Shown: positions 8,215 through 64,000 of the stretch, in pieces | Position numbering within the stretch: the first letter of the stretch is position 1 | Layout of the letters: every line of letters starts with the position of its first letter | Assembly: GCA_964522105.1 (NCBI GenBank) | Contig: CAZFVA010000008.1 | Location: 20,225-84,224, forward strand | Length of the DNA stretch: 64,000 nt | Direction of reading: 5' to 3' | DNA from: an uncultured Anaeromyxobacteraceae bacterium | GTDB taxonomy: Bacteria > Myxococcota_A > UBA9042 > DTJE01 | Notes under the pieces: model-generated | Told to the model about the DNA's origin: nothing | Database searches by the model: none | The model's input: only the letters and a program-made list of their open reading frames with translations | Position numbers and translations under genes: made by a program

Positions 8215-9330
8215 ATGGTGTCTGACAGGCTGAATCAAGTGGCGGATGAACCGTTTCTGGAAGCCCGCCTGCGGGCAGGTGCAGAAGGTCGCGCGCTGGG
8301 ACTGGGACTGTCGTCGTACTTCCCGCTGGAAGTGTTTGATGCCTTCGGGCTGGCGGGCATTCGCATGCCACCCGGGCCGATGACCGGCTACCCACGCGCC
8401 GATGGCGTCCTGCAGGCGTTTGCATGCACCACCGTCCGTTCGATGCTGGAAAGGCTTCTGCAGGCCGATCTGCCTGTCGGTCTGGTCGGTTCCACCAGCG
8501 GTTGCGATGCGCTGACAACCGTGCCGGGCATCCTTAACGCCGCGATACCATCGCTGCCGGTCGTTTCGCTGCGCCTTGCAGTCGCGGTTGAATCCGAAGC
8601 CGCCAGTCACCACGCAACACTTACACTTAAAGACATGTGCCGCGAAGCCGCCGCAATACTGGGACGGGCAATTGACATGGACCGCCTGGAAACGGCCATC
8701 GTCGAACGCGAAGCCGTGCGCATCCGAGTTGGAGACCTGTTTGACCGTCTGCCATCACGTGACGTCCCGGCATCCAGGATTTACGCCGCCGCCATTGCTG
8801 CCCAGGTCATGGCCCCGGCGGACTTTCTTGCGCTTTGCGAAACGTCGTTTGCGGTCGGTGCGGCTTCGGTAGATGACACAACCAAAACTACGGTTATCCC
8901 GATCCTGCTGTCCGGTGAAATGATTCCGTCCGTCCAGTGGATTCGCGACCTTGAAGATATGGGTGCAGCCATCGTATCGGACGACACCAACACAGGCTCG
9001 CGGGAAGCCGGTCGCCGTGTTCGCGCCGACCAGCCTGACCGGTTGCAGGCCATCGCCGAAAGCCTGATTCACCGCCCGGTCCACAGCCCTGAAAGGTTCG
9101 TATCAGGTCGCCCGGAAGGCGTCGCAGCGCGGGCCAGTGACGCAGGCGCGAAAGCCGCGATCCTGCTGCACTACAAGTTCTGCGACCCGAGCGCGTTCGA
9201 GGCACCGTCACTGGTGGCCGCCCTGAAAAAGGTCGGCATCCCGTCAATCGTGCTGGAAATCGATCGCCAGATCACGATGACAGGGGGCGACCGAACCAGG
9301 GTCCAGACTATGCTGGAGGCGCTGCCATGA
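8215..9330 (+). CDS. 2-hydroxyacyl-CoA dehydratase / benzoyl-CoA reductase D-component family subunit (HgdB/BcrC-like)
   Basis: HGD-D family features including LHYKFCDP. The start was chosen at ATG 8215, behind a GGAGGGGG RBS. The stop overlaps the next gene's ATG (ATGA). Confidence 0.7.
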   Translation: MVSDRLNQVADEPFLEARLRAGAEGRALGLGLSSYFPLEVFDAFGLAGIRMPPGPMTGYPRADGVLQAFACTTVRSMLERLLQADLPVGLVGSTSGCDALTTVPGILNAAIPSLPVVSLRLAVAVESEAASHHATLTLKDMCREAAAILGRAIDMDRLETAIVEREAVRIRVGDLFDRLPSRDVPASRIYAAAIAAQVMAPADFLALCETSFAVGAASVDDTTKTTVIPILLSGEMIPSVQWIRDLEDMGAAIVSDDTNTGSREAGRRVRADQPDRLQAIAESLIHRPVHSPERFVSGRPEGVAARASDAGAKAAILLHYKFCDPSAFEAPSLVAALKKVGIPSIVLEIDRQITMTGGDRTRVQTMLEALP

Positions 9331-10526
9331 TTAAGTTGCGTGCGAACAAGCGCCTGCAGTCGACTATCCGCAACCAGGTTCTGTGGACCAGATTCGGCTC
9401 AAAAATCGGGCGTCCGGTGGCATGGGTCACGTCAGGATCGCCGGTCGAAATTGTACTTGCCGCAGGTTTTATACCGTTTTACCCGGAAAACCATGCGGCC
9501 ATCTGTGCGGCACGCGGGATGTCCATGGAACTGGCAGAACAGACCGAAGCTGAAGGATATTCCCGCGATCTGTGCAGCTATTTCCGCGTCGATATCGGCA
9601 GTCAGATCAGTGGCAAGTCACCGATGGGCCATCTGGTTCCCCCGGATGTCATCCTGCTGTCAAACAACATCTGCGGCACAGTCCAGAACTGGTTCCGACT
9701 GACGGCCGAACGATTCAATGTACCGCTGCTGTTTCTGGACACACCTTTTAACGACGGTCCACCGACCGATGCTGACCTGGCCTACGTCCGCGAACAGATG
9801 CTCCACATAGCGGCAGAAGCCGGCCGAATAAGCGGCCACCGCGTAACCGATGCCCGTCTTGGCCGGGTCGTATCACGATCCCGGAAAGCCCTGGAACTGT
9901 GGGCCGAAGTCCTTGGAATGGCGACCGGACACCCGGCACCGTTCACATCGTTCGACGCATTTGTCCACATGGCCCCGATCGTGTCCATGCGCGGCACCAG
10001 ACGCTGCATTTCTTATTACAAGAAACTGCGTGACGAGGTTCGCGAACGCGCAAAGGCAGGCATTTCGTCTGTGCCCGACGAACGCGTCCGCGTGGTCTGG
10101 GACAACATCGCGATCTGGCCGGCGCACAAAGAGCTGAAGAAGCTTTTTGAAAAATACCACGTGTCTCTGGTGGCCGACACATACACCAGCGCATGGAGTG
10201 CCGAGGACTTAAACCCTGCGGACCCGTTCACCAGCCTGGCCCGCGTCTATACCGACATCATTTTGAACCACGGTGCAGAACACCGCGTCAAAGTCATTTC
10301 AGATATGGTGCGCAAGTTTGACGCCAGCGGCTTCGTGCTGCATTCGAACCGGTCGTGCAAACGCTATTCGCTTGGCCAGTTCGGCGTAAAAAACGCAGTG
10401 TCGGCCGCCACCGGCGCCACCGGTGTCGTAATCGAAGCCGACATGGCCGATCCACGCTCGGTCTCGTTCGAACACCTCCAGCAACGGCTTGTGCCGTTCT
10501 TCGAGGCACTGGGGGCATCCGAATGA
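9327..10526 (+). CDS. 2-hydroxyacyl-CoA dehydratase D-component family subunit (HgdA-like paralog)
   Basis: VAWVTSGSPVEIVLAAGFIPFYPENHAA and SCKRYSLGQ motifs of the HgdA/BcrB family. Overlaps its neighbours by ATGA at both ends. Confidence 0.7.
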   Translation: MIKLRANKRLQSTIRNQVLWTRFGSKIGRPVAWVTSGSPVEIVLAAGFIPFYPENHAAICAARGMSMELAEQTEAEGYSRDLCSYFRVDIGSQISGKSPMGHLVPPDVILLSNNICGTVQNWFRLTAERFNVPLLFLDTPFNDGPPTDADLAYVREQMLHIAAEAGRISGHRVTDARLGRVVSRSRKALELWAEVLGMATGHPAPFTSFDAFVHMAPIVSMRGTRRCISYYKKLRDEVRERAKAGISSVPDERVRVVWDNIAIWPAHKELKKLFEKYHVSLVADTYTSAWSAEDLNPADPFTSLARVYTDIILNHGAEHRVKVISDMVRKFDASGFVLHSNRSCKRYSLGQFGVKNAVSAATGATGVVIEADMADPRSVSFEHLQQRLVPFFEALGASE

Positions 10527-57783: not shown

Positions 57784-59787
57784 TTACTGAACAGAGTCGG
57801 AATGTTCCAGCGCAGCAAGTTCTTCAGCGGCGGAAGTCCACTGGTCAAAAACCTCGTCCAGCTTTGAACGCAGTTCCCTTGCCTGGTCACCAACGACCCT
57901 CGCGCGGTCAAGGTCTTCATACAGGTCGGGGGAAACAAGTTCTTCTTCAACCTTGTGAAGCTCGGTTTCAAGGGCCGTTATCTTCTGTTCGAACTTCTCG
58001 ACTTTGTCGCGCAATGGCTTCAGCAGCCGGTATAGACGGTTTCTGCGCTCGGCTTCGTCACGCTTGCGCTCACGGTCCTGATTTCTGCGCGCCGCCGACG
58101 CAGCGTCGGATTCTGAAACAGGCTGCGCTTCGGTCTGCGCGGTAAGGCCACCGGTGCGCGAAACGTAATACGTGTAGTTGCCTTCGTACCTGGCAGCCTG
58201 ACCATCCCTGATTTCAACGACCGCTGATGCGACGTTATCCATAAAACGACGGTCATGGGTCGTGAAGATGATAGCCCCGGAATGTTCCTTCAACGCCCGC
58301 TCAAGGACTTCGCGCGACGCGATATCAAGATGGTTCGTCGGCTCGTCCATCACCAGGATTCCAAACGGTTGCAGCAGTATCCTGGCAAGCATCAGGCGGG
58401 CCTTTTCGCCGCCCGACAATGACACAACCTTTTTGTCGTAATCGTCATCACCAAAAAGGAAAGCGCCCAACAGCGACTTGACGTGCGGCGCGGTGTGAAG
58501 GTCGGCCACGGCAAGCATCGTCTGTTCCAGCGTCAGGTCCGGATTCAGAATTTCATACTGGTCCTGCGCGAAGTAGCCGACTTTGACGTTGTCGGCCAGC
58601 ATCACTTTACCTTCGTCCGGCACCGTCACACCGGCGGCAAGACGCAGCAGCGTAGACTTTCCTGCACCGTTCAGACCGACCAGCGCAAGACGTTCGCCGC
58701 GATGCAGGCGCAGATTCAGGCCCTCAAACACCGTTCGCGCGCCATATCTGCGGGTCACATCTTCAAGGCTCAGTGCAAGGTCGGGCGACCTTGGCGGCGA
58801 TGGAAACTTGAAACGGACGTTGCGGACGCCTTCCGGGGGATGAAGTCTTTCAACCTTTTCCAGCGCCCTGATACGCGACTGAACGACCTGCGCCCTGTCC
58901 TTCCTGACGCGGTTCTTCGCGATGAAGTCCTCGATATCCCTTATCTTATCAAGCTGTTCTTCATATTTCTTCCAGGCAAGTTCCATGGCCTTGGCGCGCT
59001 CTTCCACATACCGGTCATAAACTGGCTGCTTCGGATTGCCACCAAAATCGGTGGCACCGTCCCGCGACACCTCGACCACTTTTGTGACAGTACGATTAAG
59101 GAAAAAACGATCGTGCGCCACCATCACAACGGCGCCCGGGAACGTCTGCAGGTAATTTTCAAACCACAGAATCCCTTCAAGATCCAGATGGTTGGTCGGT
59201 TCGTCAAGAAGCAGAAGGTCGGGCGAATCAAGCAGCAGCCGCGCCAGTTCGACACGCATCAGCAGCCCGCCCGACATCGTCCCGACAGGTCTGTTCAGAT
59301 CGTCCTGAGCAAATCCAAGACCTGTCAGAATCGACATCGCCTTCGACGGCATCGCGTCTGCTTCAGCCGCGGTCAGACGGTCCTCAATTTCGGCAAGCCT
59401 GTGAACGACCGCATCATGAGAATCGTCGTGCACGTCCCCGCCATGAGCGGCCATATGCCTGTCCAGCTCGGCCAGACATTCCGCCTTGCGATCCAGAAGT
59501 TCGCCGACGCCACGCGCATTTCTGACACAGAATTGAACAAGACCGAGATCACCGGCGCAGCTCGGATGAATCTCCTGCTGCAGATAACCGAGCCTGATTC
59601 CTTTCTGAATTTCGATGCGGCCTGCATCGGCACTGATTTCACCAAGGATTATGCGGAACAGCGTCGTCTTGCCGGTACCGTTCGGCCCGACCAGACCTAT
59701 CCTGTCCCGCTGATTAATGCGGATATTTACGCCTGAAAAAAGCAGGCGGGACCCAAACGACTTCCTTATGTCTATAAGGTCAAGCAT
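57784..59787 (-). CDS. ABC-F family ATP-binding cassette protein (two ABC domains, no TMD)
   Basis: Two Walker A sites (GPNGTGKTT, GLNGAGKST), two LSGG signatures, and the inter-domain linker of ABC-F. Confidence 0.9.
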   Translation of the reverse strand: MLDLIDIRKSFGSRLLFSGVNIRINQRDRIGLVGPNGTGKTTLFRIILGEISADAGRIEIQKGIRLGYLQQEIHPSCAGDLGLVQFCVRNARGVGELLDRKAECLAELDRHMAAHGGDVHDDSHDAVVHRLAEIEDRLTAAEADAMPSKAMSILTGLGFAQDDLNRPVGTMSGGLLMRVELARLLLDSPDLLLLDEPTNHLDLEGILWFENYLQTFPGAVVMVAHDRFFLNRTVTKVVEVSRDGATDFGGNPKQPVYDRYVEERAKAMELAWKKYEEQLDKIRDIEDFIAKNRVRKDRAQVVQSRIRALEKVERLHPPEGVRNVRFKFPSPPRSPDLALSLEDVTRRYGARTVFEGLNLRLHRGERLALVGLNGAGKSTLLRLAAGVTVPDEGKVMLADNVKVGYFAQDQYEILNPDLTLEQTMLAVADLHTAPHVKSLLGAFLFGDDDYDKKVVSLSGGEKARLMLARILLQPFGILVMDEPTNHLDIASREVLERALKEHSGAIIFTTHDRRFMDNVASAVVEIRDGQAARYEGNYTYYVSRTGGLTAQTEAQPVSESDAASAARRNQDRERKRDEAERRNRLYRLLKPLRDKVEKFEQKITALETELHKVEEELVSPDLYEDLDRARVVGDQARELRSKLDEVFDQWTSAAEELAALEHSDSVQ

Positions 59788-59915: not shown

Positions 59916-60587
59916 ATGACCCGCAATTCACCGTACAACATCAAGGTTTCACCGTCGATCATCGCCGGCGACCAGGGACGGCTTGCTGAAGAAGTTCGAG
60001 CACTTGACAAGGCCGGAGCCGACATGATTCACCTTGACATCATGGACGGACAGTTCGTTTCAAATATCACGATAGGTCCCGATGTTGTCGCCGACCTGCG
60101 CAAACACACATCGCTGCCGTTTGACTGTCACCTGATGCTGCTGCAACCGTGGCGCTACGTGCCACAGTTCGTCAAGGCCGGGGCAGACAGAATAGCCGTT
60201 CATGTAGAAACGTCCAACGTATCAGACACTTTGAAGATGATTCGCGATGCAGGGGTAAGTCCGGGCATCGCGATTAACCCGCCGACCGGCATTGAAACAA
60301 TCTTCAACTATCTTGAATTAGTTGACTTTGTTCTGGTCATGACGGTCAACCCGGGATTTTATGGTCAGCCTCTTATCCCCGAAGCACTTGACAAGCTGGC
60401 CGTGCTGCGACAGAATTCCGTCGCTTCAGGTCGGAAGATGACCATTCAGGTGGACGGGGGCATCAGGGCCGCCAACATTCGGCAAGTGGCCGAAGCTGGC
60501 GCTGATGAAATTGTGGCCGGTGCTGCGGTTCTTAAAACTGCTGATTACCGGGAAGCAATCCAGTTCCTTCGGAAAGGCGGAATCTGA
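59916..60587 (+). CDS. rpe: Ribulose-phosphate 3-epimerase
   Basis: SPSIIAGD, HLDIMDG and VDGGI motifs; 223 aa. Confidence 0.9.
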   Translation: MTRNSPYNIKVSPSIIAGDQGRLAEEVRALDKAGADMIHLDIMDGQFVSNITIGPDVVADLRKHTSLPFDCHLMLLQPWRYVPQFVKAGADRIAVHVETSNVSDTLKMIRDAGVSPGIAINPPTGIETIFNYLELVDFVLVMTVNPGFYGQPLIPEALDKLAVLRQNSVASGRKMTIQVDGGIRAANIRQVAEAGADEIVAGAAVLKTADYREAIQFLRKGGI

Positions 60588-60599
60588 CCGGTTGTTAAA

Positions 60600-60676
60600 C
60601 GGGGCGTAGCGCAGTCTGGTAGCGCACATGGTTCGGGACCATGGAGTCGCTGGTTCGAATCCAGTCGCCCCGACCA
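60600..60676 (+). tRNA. tRNA-Pro (anticodon CGG)
   Basis: Hand-folded cloverleaf. The acceptor stem CGGGGCG/CGCCCCG has the C1-G72 pair typical of tRNA-Pro. The anticodon loop is TTCGGGA, with G37 next to the anticodon. T-loop TTCGAAT, encoded CCA, 77 nt. Confidence 0.85.
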
Positions 60677-60751
60677 ATAACAGTATCGAGTCTTCACTAA
60701 CCCTGACGGGGTTTCTGTACCCTCGATGACCGTATTTCATCCCCTGGCCGC

Positions 60752-60781
60752 TTGACAATGCTTTTCCCCGGTTGATACCAT
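60752..60781 (+). promoter_or_regulatory. Candidate sigma70-like promoter (TTGACA-18nt-TACCAT) upstream of the paired radical SAM operon
   Basis: ttgaca at 60752-60757 and taccat at 60776-60781, about 65 nt upstream of ATG 60847. Confidence 0.3.
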
Positions 60782-60846
60782 GTCACGTTATTTTGCCCGG
60801 GGCGGATGCGCCCGTACCACACCGATTTTTGCGGAGGACACCTGGA

Positions 60847-61362
60847 ATGCCTGCTAAGAAGGCCGATTCGAAATCCGAGATAAGCGCCGCCGTTAAAGGG
60901 GAAACTGCTGTCATTAAATTTCACAAGTCACTTTATTCGACCGACGCGCTTTTCGGCACGGCGTTTGTATTTCTTGACCGCTGCTACGTCCACCTTGATA
61001 TGGCCGGTGACGACCACATTGAAGTGACGCTGGCGTTAAGGCCGGATTCAGCCGTTTCGCTGGCCGCGCTTGCCGGTGAATTCAAGAACGAGATGGTCAA
61101 CCAGGCCCTCAGGTTCAAGCTGGCCAAGCAGACGGAAAAGGTCAGAACGATGATCGTCGGACGGGCCATCGGCGAAGCCATGCCTGCCGAAGAGCCTGCT
61201 GCGGATGGCCGCACATACCACTCGGTACCCGATCTGCCGCCGGAAGTTGCCAAACTTCTGAGTGAAGAAGAAGAAAGCCTGGACTTCCTGGACGACCCGT
61301 TTGGAATCGCCGTTCCGTGGGAAGAAAAGTACAACAAGGACAAGAAGCCTGAAGCCAAATGA
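60847..61362 (+). CDS. Hypothetical protein (171 aa), first gene of the paired radical SAM operon
   Basis: ATG follows a GGAGGA RBS. Globular N-terminal part (…AVIKFHKSLYSTDALFGTAFVFLDRCYVHLD…) with an acidic C-terminal tail. No family recognised. Confidence 0.5.
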   Translation: MPAKKADSKSEISAAVKGETAVIKFHKSLYSTDALFGTAFVFLDRCYVHLDMAGDDHIEVTLALRPDSAVSLAALAGEFKNEMVNQALRFKLAKQTEKVRTMIVGRAIGEAMPAEEPAADGRTYHSVPDLPPEVAKLLSEEEESLDFLDDPFGIAVPWEEKYNKDKKPEAK

Positions 61363-61386
61363 TTCGTCGCCCGCTGCGGAGATATT

Positions 61387-61602
61387 ATGAAAAGCAGTTT
61401 TCACAAGAAGATATACCCTCTTAAAGCCGTAAAAGCGGCCGTCGAGGCCTTTTCCGAAGTCGCAACAATCACCGTCGGAAAGGACGGTGATTACATCACA
61501 GTTGAACTCGAATCGGGCAACCCCACAGAAGATGCTGAATTTATGGGGGAATTCGAAAACTTCGTTCTGGGCGAAACTACAATGTTGCGAGGCGTCAAAT
61601 GA
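61387..61602 (+). CDS. Hypothetical small protein (71 aa), possible peptide chaperone or HxsD-like accessory
   Basis: GGAG RBS. The stop overlaps the ATG of the following rSAM (ATGA). No Cys and a beta-strand-rich centre (DYITVELE). Family unknown. Confidence 0.45.
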   Translation: MKSSFHKKIYPLKAVKAAVEAFSEVATITVGKDGDYITVELESGNPTEDAEFMGEFENFVLGETTMLRGVK

Positions 61603-63086
61603 CTTCGAAGCCCCTGAATAATCTGCTCAGATATCGCCAGGTCGGGGACAAGTTCGTTGTCACGAATGACATTGGCGAATTTGTTGTTTTGACCGCGGCC
61701 GAGCTGGACCTTCTGGCATCCGGCAAGGTTAAGGCCGGTTCCGAACTGGCTGATAGACTTCACGCGAAACATTTCCTGCTGAACGAAAACGAAGTCGAAA
61801 GTGCCGCCGACGCTTATGGCCGCAAGACTTCCTATCTGTACCACGGTCCTGTGCTGCACATCATGGTCATCACGCTGCGATGCAACCAGGTCTGCAAGTA
61901 CTGCCACGCAAGCCGTGCGTCGCTGCGCGAAACCGAAACAGACATGTCGATTGCGACCGCTGAAAAAGTGGTCGATATGGCGATGCGTTCACCGTCCGAC
62001 ACAATCACGATCGAGTTCCAGGGCGGCGAACCGCTGGTCAACTGGGAAACGGTCAAACACGTCGTTGAATACGGTTCACGCAAGGCCGATGCTGCCGGCA
62101 AGCGCGTCATGTTTTCACTGGTTTCCAACCTGTCACTTATTGATGACGAAAAGCTGGACTACCTGGTTTCCAGGCGCGTTCAGATTTCCACATCCCTTGA
62201 CGGCCCGAAGGACATCCACGACGGCAACCGCAAGCTGTCCGGCGCAAGCGCTTACGAAAAGTGCGTGTACTGGATGGACAGAATTAACGCCGCGTACGTC
62301 GCCGCCGGCCTTGACCCGAAGCTGTACCACGTTGAAGCACTGGCCACGATTACCAGGGAACACCTCGGCAGACCGAAAGACCTGGTCGATGAATACGTCG
62401 CCCGTGGCTGCCGCGCCATCTTCATGCGCCCGCTGAACCCGTTCGGTTACGCGAAGGCGACTGAAGACACGGTCGGATACTCGGCTGACGACTTCCTGAA
62501 GTTCTACAACGAAGCGCTGGACTACATTCTGGAACTGAACGGCCGCGGTATTGAAATCATGGAGCGCCTGGCTGCCATCTTCCTGACAAAGATCATGACG
62601 CCGGACGATCCGAACTACCTCGACATCAGAAACCCGTGCGGCGCCGGAATCGGCCAGATTGCGTACAACTACGACGGCTCGATCTTCACCTGTGACGAAG
62701 GCCGCATGGTCTATCAGATGGGCGATGACATTTTCAAGCTGGGCGAAGTCGGCAACATGACGCTGAAAGAAGTCGTCACCCATGACACGGTCAAGACGCT
62801 GGCGATGGCGTCAACACTTGACTCGCTGCCTGGCTGCGCGACGTGCGCCTACAAGCCGTGGTGCGGAACGTGTCCCGTGTACAACTACGGTGAACAGGGC
62901 AACATCTTCCCGCAGAACAGCACGAATCAGCGCTGCAAGATTTATATGGGTGTTCAGGACCGCCTGATGAAACACTTTGTCGAAGGTGACACAAAAACCA
63001 CCGACATCTTCAGCCGCTGGGTCGAGGTCAAAGACAGACCGGAATACCTTCACGACGGTCGTAAGCCGCAGGATCAGGGCCAGTAG
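61599..63086 (+). CDS. Radical SAM/SPASM domain enzyme with ~100-aa N-terminal extension (peptide-maturase-like; anSME/HxsB-type)
   Basis: CNQVCKYC (CxxxCxxC) and GGEPL. The SPASM domain is canonical: CGAGIGQIAYNYDGSIFTC, CATCAYKPWCGTC (Cx2Cx5Cx2C), and RCK. Confidence 0.85.
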   Translation: MTSKPLNNLLRYRQVGDKFVVTNDIGEFVVLTAAELDLLASGKVKAGSELADRLHAKHFLLNENEVESAADAYGRKTSYLYHGPVLHIMVITLRCNQVCKYCHASRASLRETETDMSIATAEKVVDMAMRSPSDTITIEFQGGEPLVNWETVKHVVEYGSRKADAAGKRVMFSLVSNLSLIDDEKLDYLVSRRVQISTSLDGPKDIHDGNRKLSGASAYEKCVYWMDRINAAYVAAGLDPKLYHVEALATITREHLGRPKDLVDEYVARGCRAIFMRPLNPFGYAKATEDTVGYSADDFLKFYNEALDYILELNGRGIEIMERLAAIFLTKIMTPDDPNYLDIRNPCGAGIGQIAYNYDGSIFTCDEGRMVYQMGDDIFKLGEVGNMTLKEVVTHDTVKTLAMASTLDSLPGCATCAYKPWCGTCPVYNYGEQGNIFPQNSTNQRCKIYMGVQDRLMKHFVEGDTKTTDIFSRWVEVKDRPEYLHDGRKPQDQGQ

Positions 63087-63103
63087 TCACTTCGAGGGCC
63101 CTG

Positions 63104-64000
63104 ATGAAGCAGCCCGCCACAACAGATCCAGTTGTAAAAGCCGTACTTAAAATTACGTACAGGTGCAACGCCAGATGTCTGTTCTGCAGGGCATCAGACT
63201 ACCGCACCACAGTCGATGACGAACCTGCCGAACAGATTCTGAAAAAGGCGCTGATGGCGCGGGAAGCCGGGGCCGGGATGATCCTGTTTTCAGGCGGGGA
63301 ACCGGCGTTGCGGCGCGACATATTCCTGCTTGCGAAAGGCGTCAGGGCGCTCGGGATGGAATTCGGACTGATTACGAACGGGTCGGTGCTGGCGAATCCT
63401 GCGTATCTGCAGAAGATGCTTGATGCGGGCCTGCGGTACGTCCACACGTCGCTGCACGGGGCATCTGCCGCCACACACGCCGCCATGACTGAACTGGACA
63501 GCTTCGACCTTGTCATGAAGCTGCTGGAACAGCTTGCGGAAACAGATGTCGATGTGCACGTCAACACAGTAATTACCCGCGCAAACGTGGGCGAGCTGGC
63601 CGCCATCGGGGACATGCTGGCGGCGCACGGCGCAATTACGCACAAACTGTGCCTGATGGAACCGCGTGGCCTTTTCTGTGAAAACGAGGCCGAGCTTCTG
63701 GTTCAACCGGAACTTGCAGGCAGGGCCGCGACCGACGAAGTTCACCGGACGACCGCTCTTTACGGCGCAACCGGATTTAAGACCGTGATCGAGGGATTCC
63801 CGCTTTGCCAGATCAGGTCGGCCCTTGATTCCGTTTCAAACCTGCTTGCCCACAACATCATTTTCATGAGCGAAGGCTTCGAAGATGCAATCTACCCGGC
63901 CGACCACGGCACCCGCGTTTTCACCGACATCTGCGCCGGATGTTCCGCCAGAAATGACTGCCCCGGCGTCTATCCTGGATACGTTGAAAGATTCGGGGTT
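63104..64000 (+). CDS. Second radical SAM enzyme (partial, continues beyond window end)
   Basis: CNARCLFC CxxxCxxC cluster 7 residues after the KAVLKITYR start, then GGEPALR. GAGGG RBS 17 nt after the previous stop. The frame is open to the window end (≥299 aa). Confidence 0.8.
   Translation, partial: MKQPATTDPVVKAVLKITYRCNARCLFCRASDYRTTVDDEPAEQILKKALMAREAGAGMILFSGGEPALRRDIFLLAKGVRALGMEFGLITNGSVLANPAYLQKMLDAGLRYVHTSLHGASAATHAAMTELDSFDLVMKLLEQLAETDVDVHVNTVITRANVGELAAIGDMLAAHGAITHKLCLMEPRGLFCENEAELLVQPELAGRAATDEVHRTTALYGATGFKTVIEGFPLCQIRSALDSVSNLLAHNIIFMSEGFEDAIYPADHGTRVFTDICAGCSARNDCPGVYPGYVERFGV

Follow-up and report, generated by a model that had tools for sequence, protein, structure and literature searches.

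The window analysed here, a 64,000-nucleotide stretch from an uncultured Anaeromyxobacteraceae bacterium (contig CAZFVA010000008.1), ends in a cassette of four genes, designated g1 to g4, which encode an HxsD protein, an HxsD-like protein, the SPASM-type radical S-adenosylmethionine (SAM) enzyme HxsB and a second, HxsC-like radical SAM enzyme. The identity and architecture of the cassette as a relative of the type-4 branch of the His-Xaa-Ser (HxS) maturation systems, abbreviated Hxs, can be assigned with high confidence. The HxsC-like enzyme falls outside the curated HxsC families, and the locus is an HxsA-less variant of type-4 Hxs. Taken as a whole, the four genes have slightly better than an even chance of representing a reduced, HxsA-less member of this branch for which the C-terminal tail of the HxsD protein is the likeliest substrate. 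Considered by itself, the role of the tail as the substrate in the lineage of the window is a more tentative proposal that falls a little short of even.

An Hxs-like maturation cassette with two radical SAM enzymes had been suggested in the first-pass annotation, which was made from the DNA letters alone, and three NCBIfam hidden Markov models (HMMs) with scores above cut-off bear this out. The g1 product matches HxsD (TIGR03976) at 63.2 bits against a cut-off of 50, g2 matches HxsD-like (NF038315), a marker of type 4, at 72.3 bits against 41, and g3 matches HxsB (TIGR03978) at 532.5 bits against 370 over residues 10-475. The use of a tailed HxsD as a further marker of type 4 is an observation of this study and corresponds to no curated model. 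A PF27806 match was found on the identical g1 gene of L001, a JGI metagenome contig that is 100% identical to the final 1 kb of the window and extends beyond its end. The start of g1 is the ATG at 60847, and orthologues begin MPAKK. In the AlphaFold2 (AF2) model of g1 the HxsD domain occupies residues ~12-111, with a predicted beta-beta-alpha-beta-beta-alpha-alpha fold and a predicted local distance difference test score (pLDDT) above 90 for residues 12-111, followed by a disordered C-terminal tail (pLDDT 39-64 for residues 112-171). The g2 protein, which adjoins g1 in nearly all related loci, is by profile comparison a truncated paralogue of the g1 HxsD domain (hhalign probability 98%, E 6.5e-14), and its origin as a detached N-terminal domain of canonical HxsC was rejected (hhalign probability 0.1%). 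Both small proteins belong to the HxsD fold family, with g2 paralogous to the g1 domain, and they were therefore rejected as precursors in the usual sense. They had been described as free of cysteine, which needs correction for g1, where a single Cys lies inside the HxsD domain.

The g3 enzyme had been called a SPASM-type radical SAM protein, and its cysteines confirm this. The CxxxCxxC motif is CNQVCKYC (C95, C99 and C102), and the seven-Cys SPASM auxiliary-cluster motif consists of CGAG (C347), GSIFTC (C365), CATCAYKPWCGTC (C413, C416, C422 and C425) and C446, though the Pfam SPASM model remains sub-threshold at 18 against 21.5 bits. The closest solved structure is CteB (PDB 5wgg; phmmer E 1e-22, g3 residues 55-431), and identity to HxsB amounts to 29% for Klebsiella pneumoniae, 24% for Rhizobium and 37% for Cupriavidus. 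Upstream of the radical SAM core, g3 has an N-terminal extension of ~85 amino acids (aa) that forms a conserved domain (53% identity within the lineage). It is a possible RiPP recognition element (RRE) of the PqqD-like winged-helix kind; no PqqD-type Pfam match was obtained on g3, and the CteB alignment begins only at residue 55. Weak matches were recorded to the anSME and QhpD models and, at 48-63 bits, to the XyeB, YhhB, AmcB and GrrM models, none of which reached its cut-off.

For g4 the expectation of a second radical SAM enzyme of the Hxs type stands in part, as homology to HxsC extends over the enzyme core, but the score for HxsC (TIGR03977) is 82.4 bits against a cut-off of 267.9. The remaining NCBIfam scores are likewise below cut-off (AhbD 95.1/500, HxsC4 (NF038332) 76.6/500, MoaA 80.6/325 and PqqE 69.9/381), so that neither HxsC nor HxsC4 can be assigned by model. 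The protein can nonetheless be aligned over its full length to residues 97-362 of K. pneumoniae HxsC, including a shared 'PLC' and the C-terminal CxxCx5C, and comparison of the g4-family profile with one built from three canonical HxsC proteins gives 99.5% probability (E 6e-23, 260 columns). Based on this alignment and profile match, g4 is an HxsC-like enzyme that lacks the N-terminal domain of HxsC (~95 aa). Its cysteines comprise CNARCLFC (C21, C25 and C28) and a C-terminal CAGCSARNDC, and the auxiliary-cluster set of C235, C277, C280 and C286 is invariant in the family. The AF2 model has a mean pLDDT of 94, and its nearest structures are BlsE, SkfB, SuiB and MoaA, several of which carry auxiliary clusters. 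The g4 proteins form a subfamily of their own, with at least 43% identity inside it and at most 38% to the next relatives; it is small, comprising ~63 clusters that derive almost only from metagenomes and metagenome-assembled genomes (MAGs) and are Myxococcota where labelled.

The HxsD tail motif was previously undescribed and is the most interesting lead of the locus; the literature searched mentions neither the motif nor the names "HxsD-like" and "HxsC4". After the HxsD domain, g1 has a variable Pro/Ala-rich linker and then LDFLDDPFGIAVPWEEKYNK. The corresponding motif of this HxsD branch, D[FY]LDDP[LE]GIA[VI]PWEEK[YFH]GK, is almost invariant, and its conservation exceeds that of the folded domain (g1 family, 73 clusters, 33-95% identity). 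D-7, P-6, G-4, P0, W+1 and E+2 are the same in all 212 motif occurrences, and only Tyr, Phe or His is found at position +5. One lineage carries the variant ..GIAMSWEEKY, and with the SW and WEI variants included, a DDPxGIAxPWEEK[YFH] tail is present in every examined HxsD of the branch. Seven HxsD homologues from metagenomes (P0141, P0142, P0143, P0146, P0152, P0192 and P0279) have the motif two or three times in tandem, with variable acidic spacers between the copies. The tail includes two aromatic-X-X triads (W-E-E and [Y/F/H]-G-K) as well as a Trp..Lys pair, and His-Xaa-Ser is formally an identical aromatic-X-X pattern. The motif is a candidate cis-tethered substrate or docking peptide.

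The possibility that the motif is a general tag of other protein families was rejected, as a profile search finds essentially only HxsD proteins and their fragments. Against 1.84 billion representatives the tail profile retrieved 252 proteins at E<=1e-3, and among the 150 matches listed an HxsD domain is present in 124, while most of the others resemble truncated HxsD genes. Exceptions are P0144 and P0219, which have seemingly unrelated N-terminal parts, and a 459-aa protein that still ends HxsD-like. As a separate observation, the locus of P0141 (L122/L123) also holds HxsA4 and five more radical SAM genes. Directly before the tail motif, the lineage of the window has a conserved segment, PDLPPEVAK(L/I)LAEEE (window 61225..61278, g1 residues 127-144), that is absent from the HxsD of other type-4 lineages and in which AF2 places a short helix at residues 132-141.

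More distant loci (L018-L021, L036, L038, L040 and L054-L128) combine a tailed HxsD, an HxsD-like protein and HxsB with two to six further radical SAM genes. The sister operon order is hxsD(tailed)-hxsD-like-hxsB-hxsA4-hxsC-like, often with extra radical SAM genes and a membrane protein with weak Peptidase_A24/Arc_PepC matches. In many of these loci a small HxsA4 gene is present, usually just after hxsB. Its product has a basic leader (KLPKIKK..FLxSEEGKIT) and a C-terminal (His-Gly-Ser)n-Trp run, in many cases with a hydrophobic helix as well; in L020, L038, L063, L070, L072, L075, L107, L108, L125, L126 and others the gene separates hxsB from the hxsC-like gene. NCBIfam already models HxsA4 (NF038313; 111 bits for L020) along with HxsA2, HxsA3, HxsC4 and HxsD-like, and the HxsA4 family comprises at least 655 clusters; no paper on HxsA4 or type-4 Hxs was found in the literature searched. 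The membrane protein, polytopic and ~310-390 aa long, is mostly encoded just upstream of the tailed hxsD in HxsA4-bearing loci, and could be the HxsA4 leader peptidase. In L019 (10001..11794) and L020 (2462..4405) the g4-type enzyme carries a fused class-I SAM methyltransferase domain that is missing from g4. The reported modification of HxsA is +C/-4H (+8 Da) on one HxS repeat, in view of which the fusions are suggestive. L019 has HxsA4, HxsD-like, HxsB and the g4-type enzyme, yet no tailed HxsD within 10 kb.

Several further observations were made on these sister loci. Another fusion of a radical SAM enzyme and a methyltransferase is encoded in L126 (10247..11905). The HxsA4-like precursors show two kinds of leader, one with KLPKIKK..FLxSEEGKIT and the hydrophobic helix and one with (I/L)PxF+K..GMLS..E and no helix (L116 1322..1588, L111 6664.., L064, L077 and L081 versus L020, L038 and L070). 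L127 has an HxsA4-like gene (9001..9330; P0336, 80 bits) with no radical SAM gene within 9 kb, an apparent orphan precursor whose start is overlapped by a 272-aa gene.

For 44 loci the sequence continues at least 4 kb downstream of hxsD, and HxsA4 is carried by 19 of them and absent from 25; those without it comprise 22 from the lineage of the window and 3 from other lineages (L036, L040 and L115). The search for HxsA4 used HxS regular expressions and an HMM derived from four HxsA4 sequences, which gave matches in L018-L021, L038 and many metagenome loci. The same search found no HxsA of any type in the 64-kb window, in the 10 kb downstream (L001), which brings the sequence covered around the cassette to ~74 kb, or within 10 kb on either side of the 22 lineage loci, and the earlier statement that no His-Xaa-Ser precursor is visible in the window is upheld. 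The sole tandem HxS of the window, HRSHRS, lies off-frame inside a 399-aa gene and was dismissed as spurious. The A24-like membrane protein is also absent from the loci of the lineage. As the cassette of the window has no HxsA4, no A24-like protein and no methyltransferase domain, it is best viewed as a streamlined derivative.

The streamlined cassette is maintained. A scan of one genome per species placed the g4 family in Myxococcota, "Deltaproteobacteria" and Anaeromyxobacteraceae MAGs, with the order g1-g2-g3-g4 intact in 13 complete and 3 partial loci (50-72% identity for g4, 67-84% for g3), and nine further complete cassettes were obtained from metagenome contigs. The proposed check of the four genes as a conserved unit in related genomes had a positive outcome, the unit being conserved in many of them. 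Ratios of non-synonymous to synonymous substitution rates (dN/dS) from three orthologous loci are 0.05-0.18 for all four genes (0.05-0.10 for g1 and 0.08-0.12 for g3), and the genes are thus under purifying selection; dS is near saturation, but the proportion of non-synonymous differences (pN) is far below that of synonymous ones (pS). The 13 complete and 3 partial loci share the context abcF(-) rpe(+) [tRNA-Pro] cassette(+) lipoprotein(-) FadL-like(-), with tRNA-Pro following rpe in L004-L007, L009-L011, L013 and L015. The lipoprotein/FadL-like pair is inverted, and thus co-directional with the cassette, in L012 and L047-L049, where it is still adjacent. In L052 and L053 (~48% GC) the cassette is instead situated between archease/RtcB and CTP synthase, and the lipoprotein and FadL-like neighbours are absent. 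This last context indicates that the four genes are the conserved unit, while the neighbours reflect lineage synteny.

The position of the cassette after a tRNA gene had been regarded as typical of accessory cargo, an interpretation contradicted by the conservation of the abcF-rpe-tRNA-Pro-cassette order across the lineage. Neither the window nor L001 contains a repeat of the tRNA 3' end, and the GC content of the cassette (0.54-0.58) is like that of its flanks (0.51-0.59); since there is no 3' repeat and the GC is flank-like, the locus does not appear to be island cargo. By 3' repeat, composition and patchiness it does not resemble a tRNA-linked island, no integrase-directed HMM search having been made. 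The cassette is vertically inherited in uncultured Myxococcota at a housekeeping syntenic site, and tRNA-Pro is a conserved neighbour that is neither a system component nor an integration scar.

The canonical Hxs system was reportedly defined bioinformatically by Haft and Basu in 2011. Comparison was made with loci from a K. pneumoniae plasmid (HxsD 90 aa, HxsB 462 aa, HxsC 370 aa and HxsA 211 aa), from Rhizobium and, for type 2, from Cupriavidus. Like canonical type 1 of E. coli and Klebsiella, the window has the HxsD and HxsB families in a tight operon with a radical SAM enzyme homologous to HxsC encoded directly after hxsB. Unlike type 1, it has neither HxsA nor a peptidoglycan-binding effector; g1 is extended by a 60-aa tail (canonical HxsD is 90 aa long), an HxsD-like gene is added, identity to HxsB is only 29%, and g4, with a score of 82 for a cut-off of 268, is missing ~95 residues found at the N-terminus of HxsC. 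The window locus is also chromosomal, syntenic and from Myxococcota, unlike the plasmid- or island-borne type-1 loci of Pseudomonadota, the phylum that holds 99.7% of canonical systems, with 99.6% in the order D-B-C-A (PMC13128918). The type 2 system of Cupriavidus sp. P-10 plasmid pMTS1 (HxsA2, NF038296) has the closest plasmid-borne HxsB (37%) along with HxsD and HxsC, but its order is A2-D-B-C with a short secreted HxS-repeat precursor upstream, its HxsD (106 aa) is tailless and its HxsC (394 aa) retains the N-terminal domain. The correspondence is closest with type 4, where g2 exceeds the NF038315 cut-off, the genes for tailed HxsD, HxsD-like and HxsB follow one another in the identical order, HxsB is 41-52% identical and orthologues of the g4-type enzyme (33-38% identical) are found. 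Differences from type 4 are the missing hxsA4 between hxsB and the hxsC-like gene, the missing A24-like membrane protein and extra radical SAM paralogue, the lack of the methyltransferase domain that is fused in L019 and L020, and the HxsC4 score of 76.6 against 500.

Resemblances to SPASM peptide maturases bear on the possible fate of the tail. StrB/WgkB-type SPASM enzymes cross-link Trp-Lys pairs, and PqqA and MftA are the conserved-core precursors of cofactor systems. The three-residue cyclophane synthases XyeB, HaaB and HtkB are SPASM radical SAM enzymes that cross-link aromatic-X-X motifs (PMC11499958). The window likewise combines a SPASM enzyme and a small accessory protein and has the W-E-E and [Y/F/H]-G-K triads and the W..K pair in the tail, and its candidate core is invariant, as in PqqA/PqqE/PqqD and MftA/MftC/MftB. 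None of these families reaches its cut-off, and the candidate core is attached to the accessory protein instead of a leader peptide. CteB, the SCIFF thioether maturase, is similar to g3 in being a SPASM radical SAM enzyme and has an N-terminal peptide-binding domain, but the SCIFF maturase model TIGR03974 gives 103/425 for g3 and there is no Cys-rich SCIFF precursor at the window locus.

In the mechanism that we propose, the HxsD-fold proteins would present a peptide segment to the two radical SAM enzymes, by analogy to the canonical HxsC-HxsD complex, and the enzymes would install one or more radical-mediated covalent modifications on it. The lineage would have streamlined away the usual substrate (hxsA4) and the membrane protein while keeping the machinery, and the disordered, invariant HxsD tail would itself serve as the substrate. 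The tail is taken as the likeliest substrate because the lineage lost hxsA4 and the membrane protein but retained the machinery, with selection acting on the four genes in more than one genomic context; because HxsA4-less cassettes recur in other lineages; and because the motif, besides being invariant and disordered, is specific to HxsD and in some proteins multiplied. Several points weigh against this proposal. Most type-4 loci have both the tail and HxsA4, L123 with its duplicated tail among them, such that the tail is not simply a replacement of HxsA, and a strict replacement was rejected on these grounds. The characterised HxsD of type 1 is a tailless accessory protein, and an invariant, even repeated, linear motif could equally dock HxsB or the HxsC-like enzyme. 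Finally, the N-terminal, putatively leader-binding domain of HxsB is not decaying in the lineage, which fits a leader-bearing substrate, and unlinked HxsA4-like genes exist, as in L127, when only the ~74 kb around this cassette were searched.

A stronger form of the proposal, in which the tail is the genuine substrate, with no other in this lineage, and the enzymes cross-link or modify W-E-E-K-[Y/F/H] of their own scaffold, is possible but more doubtful. Should it hold, the cassette would be a self-contained radical SAM system that, much as in the case of pyrroloquinoline quinone (PQQ) or mycofactocin, yields a modified protein or releases a molecule derived from a peptide, and every type-4 Hxs system would have a second, unrecognised substrate besides HxsA4, making HxsD more than a chaperone. 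The HxsD/HxsB/HxsC-like machinery has been retained over long evolution in a housekeeping-like context and with no HxS-repeat protein, which suggests that it has a role independent of the known effector. A four-gene construct and the single tryptic-size tail peptide (DFLDDPFGIAVPWEEKYNK) offer a handle on HxsB- and HxsC-type chemistry.

The alternative to be taken most seriously is a maturase that acts in trans on an HxsA4-type (His-Gly-Ser)n precursor whose gene lies at another genomic site, with the tail only a docking or regulatory peptide. This explanation is unlikely, yet it draws on several of the observations above: a substrate-like component is present in 19 of the 44 well-covered type-4 loci, the HxsA4 family is large with its 655 clusters, L127 provides an orphan HxsA4-like gene, the HxsB N-terminal domain stays conserved in the lineage, and tail and HxsA4 co-occur in most loci. 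It is opposed by the negative HxsA searches within 64 kb upstream and 10 kb downstream of the cassette and around the 22 lineage loci, by the parallel loss of the A24-like membrane protein that accompanies HxsA4, and by the recurrence of HxsA4-less cassettes in other lineages (L036 and L040). As weaker evidence, none of the best 120 of the 655 HxsA4 clusters has its longest contig in common with the large contigs of the lineage (605, 403, 239 and 220 kb). The enzymes could also modify a flanking protein, either the 724-aa lipoprotein or the FadL-like outer-membrane protein, both of which adjoin the cassette in most lineage loci, even where inverted (L012 and L047-L049). However, both are absent beside the cassette in L052, L053 and all other type-4 loci, for which reason they were rejected as system components; abcF and rpe are equally syntenic, and the linkage is then probably lineage-wide synteny. 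Both proteins are in addition exported with signal sequences and are unlikely clients of cytoplasmic radical SAM enzymes, leaving this explanation highly improbable.

An anti-phage function would be expected by analogy to the canonical hxsD-hxsB-hxsC-hxsA operon, which was shown in 2026 to protect E. coli broadly against phages by blocking phage DNA entry, with HxsB, HxsC and HxsD all required to modify HxsA and HxsD binding HxsC (PMC13128918). A matured periplasmic effector would then act against phage here too, and g1 and g3 are of the same families as their canonical counterparts. Such a role is nevertheless improbable, since the operon has no HxsA effector, peptidoglycan-binding domain or signal peptide and is vertically inherited lineage-wide in a housekeeping context, whereas defence systems are usually patchy or island-borne, and since canonical systems are so largely confined to Pseudomonadota. 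Even the HxsC and HxsA of K. pneumoniae obtain no specific match in PADLOC 2.0, which contains no Hxs model. Least credible of all are housekeeping radical SAM enzymes, be it for anaerobic sulfatase maturation (anSME), heme, PQQ or molybdenum cofactor (Moco), or a functionless, decaying remnant. The top NCBIfam score of g4 is indeed to AhbD (95 bits), and g3 weakly matches anSME and QhpD, but the scores that bear on a housekeeping assignment, which the first-pass annotation had named as potentially refuting, are 3- to 6-fold below their cut-offs (anSME 96.8/349, and AhbD, PqqE and MoaA as given above) when HxsB exceeds its own. No sulfatase, heme, PQQ or Moco genes are adjacent, and the dN/dS of 0.05-0.18 and invariant Cys ligands speak against decay, so that on HMM scores and dN/dS both housekeeping enzymes and decay are excluded.

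The layout of the locus (Table 1) agrees with the earlier description of four tightly coupled genes, each with its own ribosome-binding site, on the 3' side of tRNA-Pro. The spacing is 24 nt between g1 and g2 and 17 nt between g3 and g4, g2 and g3 overlap in ATGA, and a GGAG/GAGG-type ribosome-binding site precedes all four starts. A promoter-like site lies between the tRNA and g1 (L001 879..908; L001 coordinates + 59873 give those of the window). The region has one such site where shuffles yield a mean of 2.1, and its assignment as the promoter of the operon is suggestive from position, the site count not being above that of shuffles. The substrate had been suspected to lie beyond the window end, which L001 does not support: the g4 stop is 21 nt past the window end and is followed 7 nt on by the stop codon of the convergent lipoprotein gene and then by the FadL/TodX-like gene. 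The operon therefore has exactly four genes, and a precursor past the window end was ruled out. Small precursor open reading frames (ORFs) between tRNA and g1 (170 nt) or between g3 and g4 (17 nt) were also rejected, none being found in regular-expression and HMM scans.

Table 1 Coordinates of the cassette, its surroundings and the features discussed in the text (window positions unless a comparison locus, L, is named)
Feature	Position	Strand	Description
g1 (HxsD)	60847..61362	+	171 aa; TIGR03976 match
g1 tail motif, residues 145-164 (LDFLDDPFGIAVPWEEKYNK)	61279..61338	+	alignments and profile search
g2 (HxsD-like)	61387..61602	+	71 aa; NF038315 match
g3 (HxsB)	61599..63086	+	495 aa; SPASM-type radical SAM; TIGR03978 match
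g4 (HxsC-like radical SAM)	63104..>64000	+	306 aa; final 7 codons beyond window
Candidate sigma-70-type promoter	60752..60781	+	consensus match; TTGACA-18-TACCAT, upstream TG
tRNA-Pro(CGG)	60600..60676	+	ARAGORN; Rfam RF00005 at 65 bits
Ribulose-phosphate 3-epimerase (rpe)	59916..60587	+	upstream of cassette; syntenic in most of lineage
ABC-F family ATPase (abcF)	57784..59787	-	upstream of cassette; syntenic in most of lineage
Tandem HxS HRSHRS at 9937	ORF 9850..10137	+	95-aa off-frame ORF within 399-aa ORF (9327..10526)
A24-like membrane protein	L038 449..1384; L122 6391..7494; L126 5579..6715; L124 254..1372; L040 4270..5448; also L018, L097/L098, L101, L128		

Some features of the flanking genes were recorded in passing. 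The 724-aa lipoprotein (L001 4159..6333, minus strand) has a lipobox, thrombospondin-3-like DxDxDG repeats and a weak Big_1 match, and the FadL/TodX-like outer-membrane protein (L001 6333..7709, minus strand) is a conserved neighbour of the cassette that is convergent in most loci. In one MAG of the lineage an extra anSME-like SPASM radical SAM gene (388 aa; L009 9933..11099, minus strand) is inserted between g4 and the lipoprotein gene. RtcB/archease genes adjoin type-4 Hxs cassettes at L052 998..2905 (minus strand), L126 2144..4013 (plus strand) and L128 402..2272 (minus strand), and this proximity in three otherwise different loci may reflect shared synteny or a functional link.

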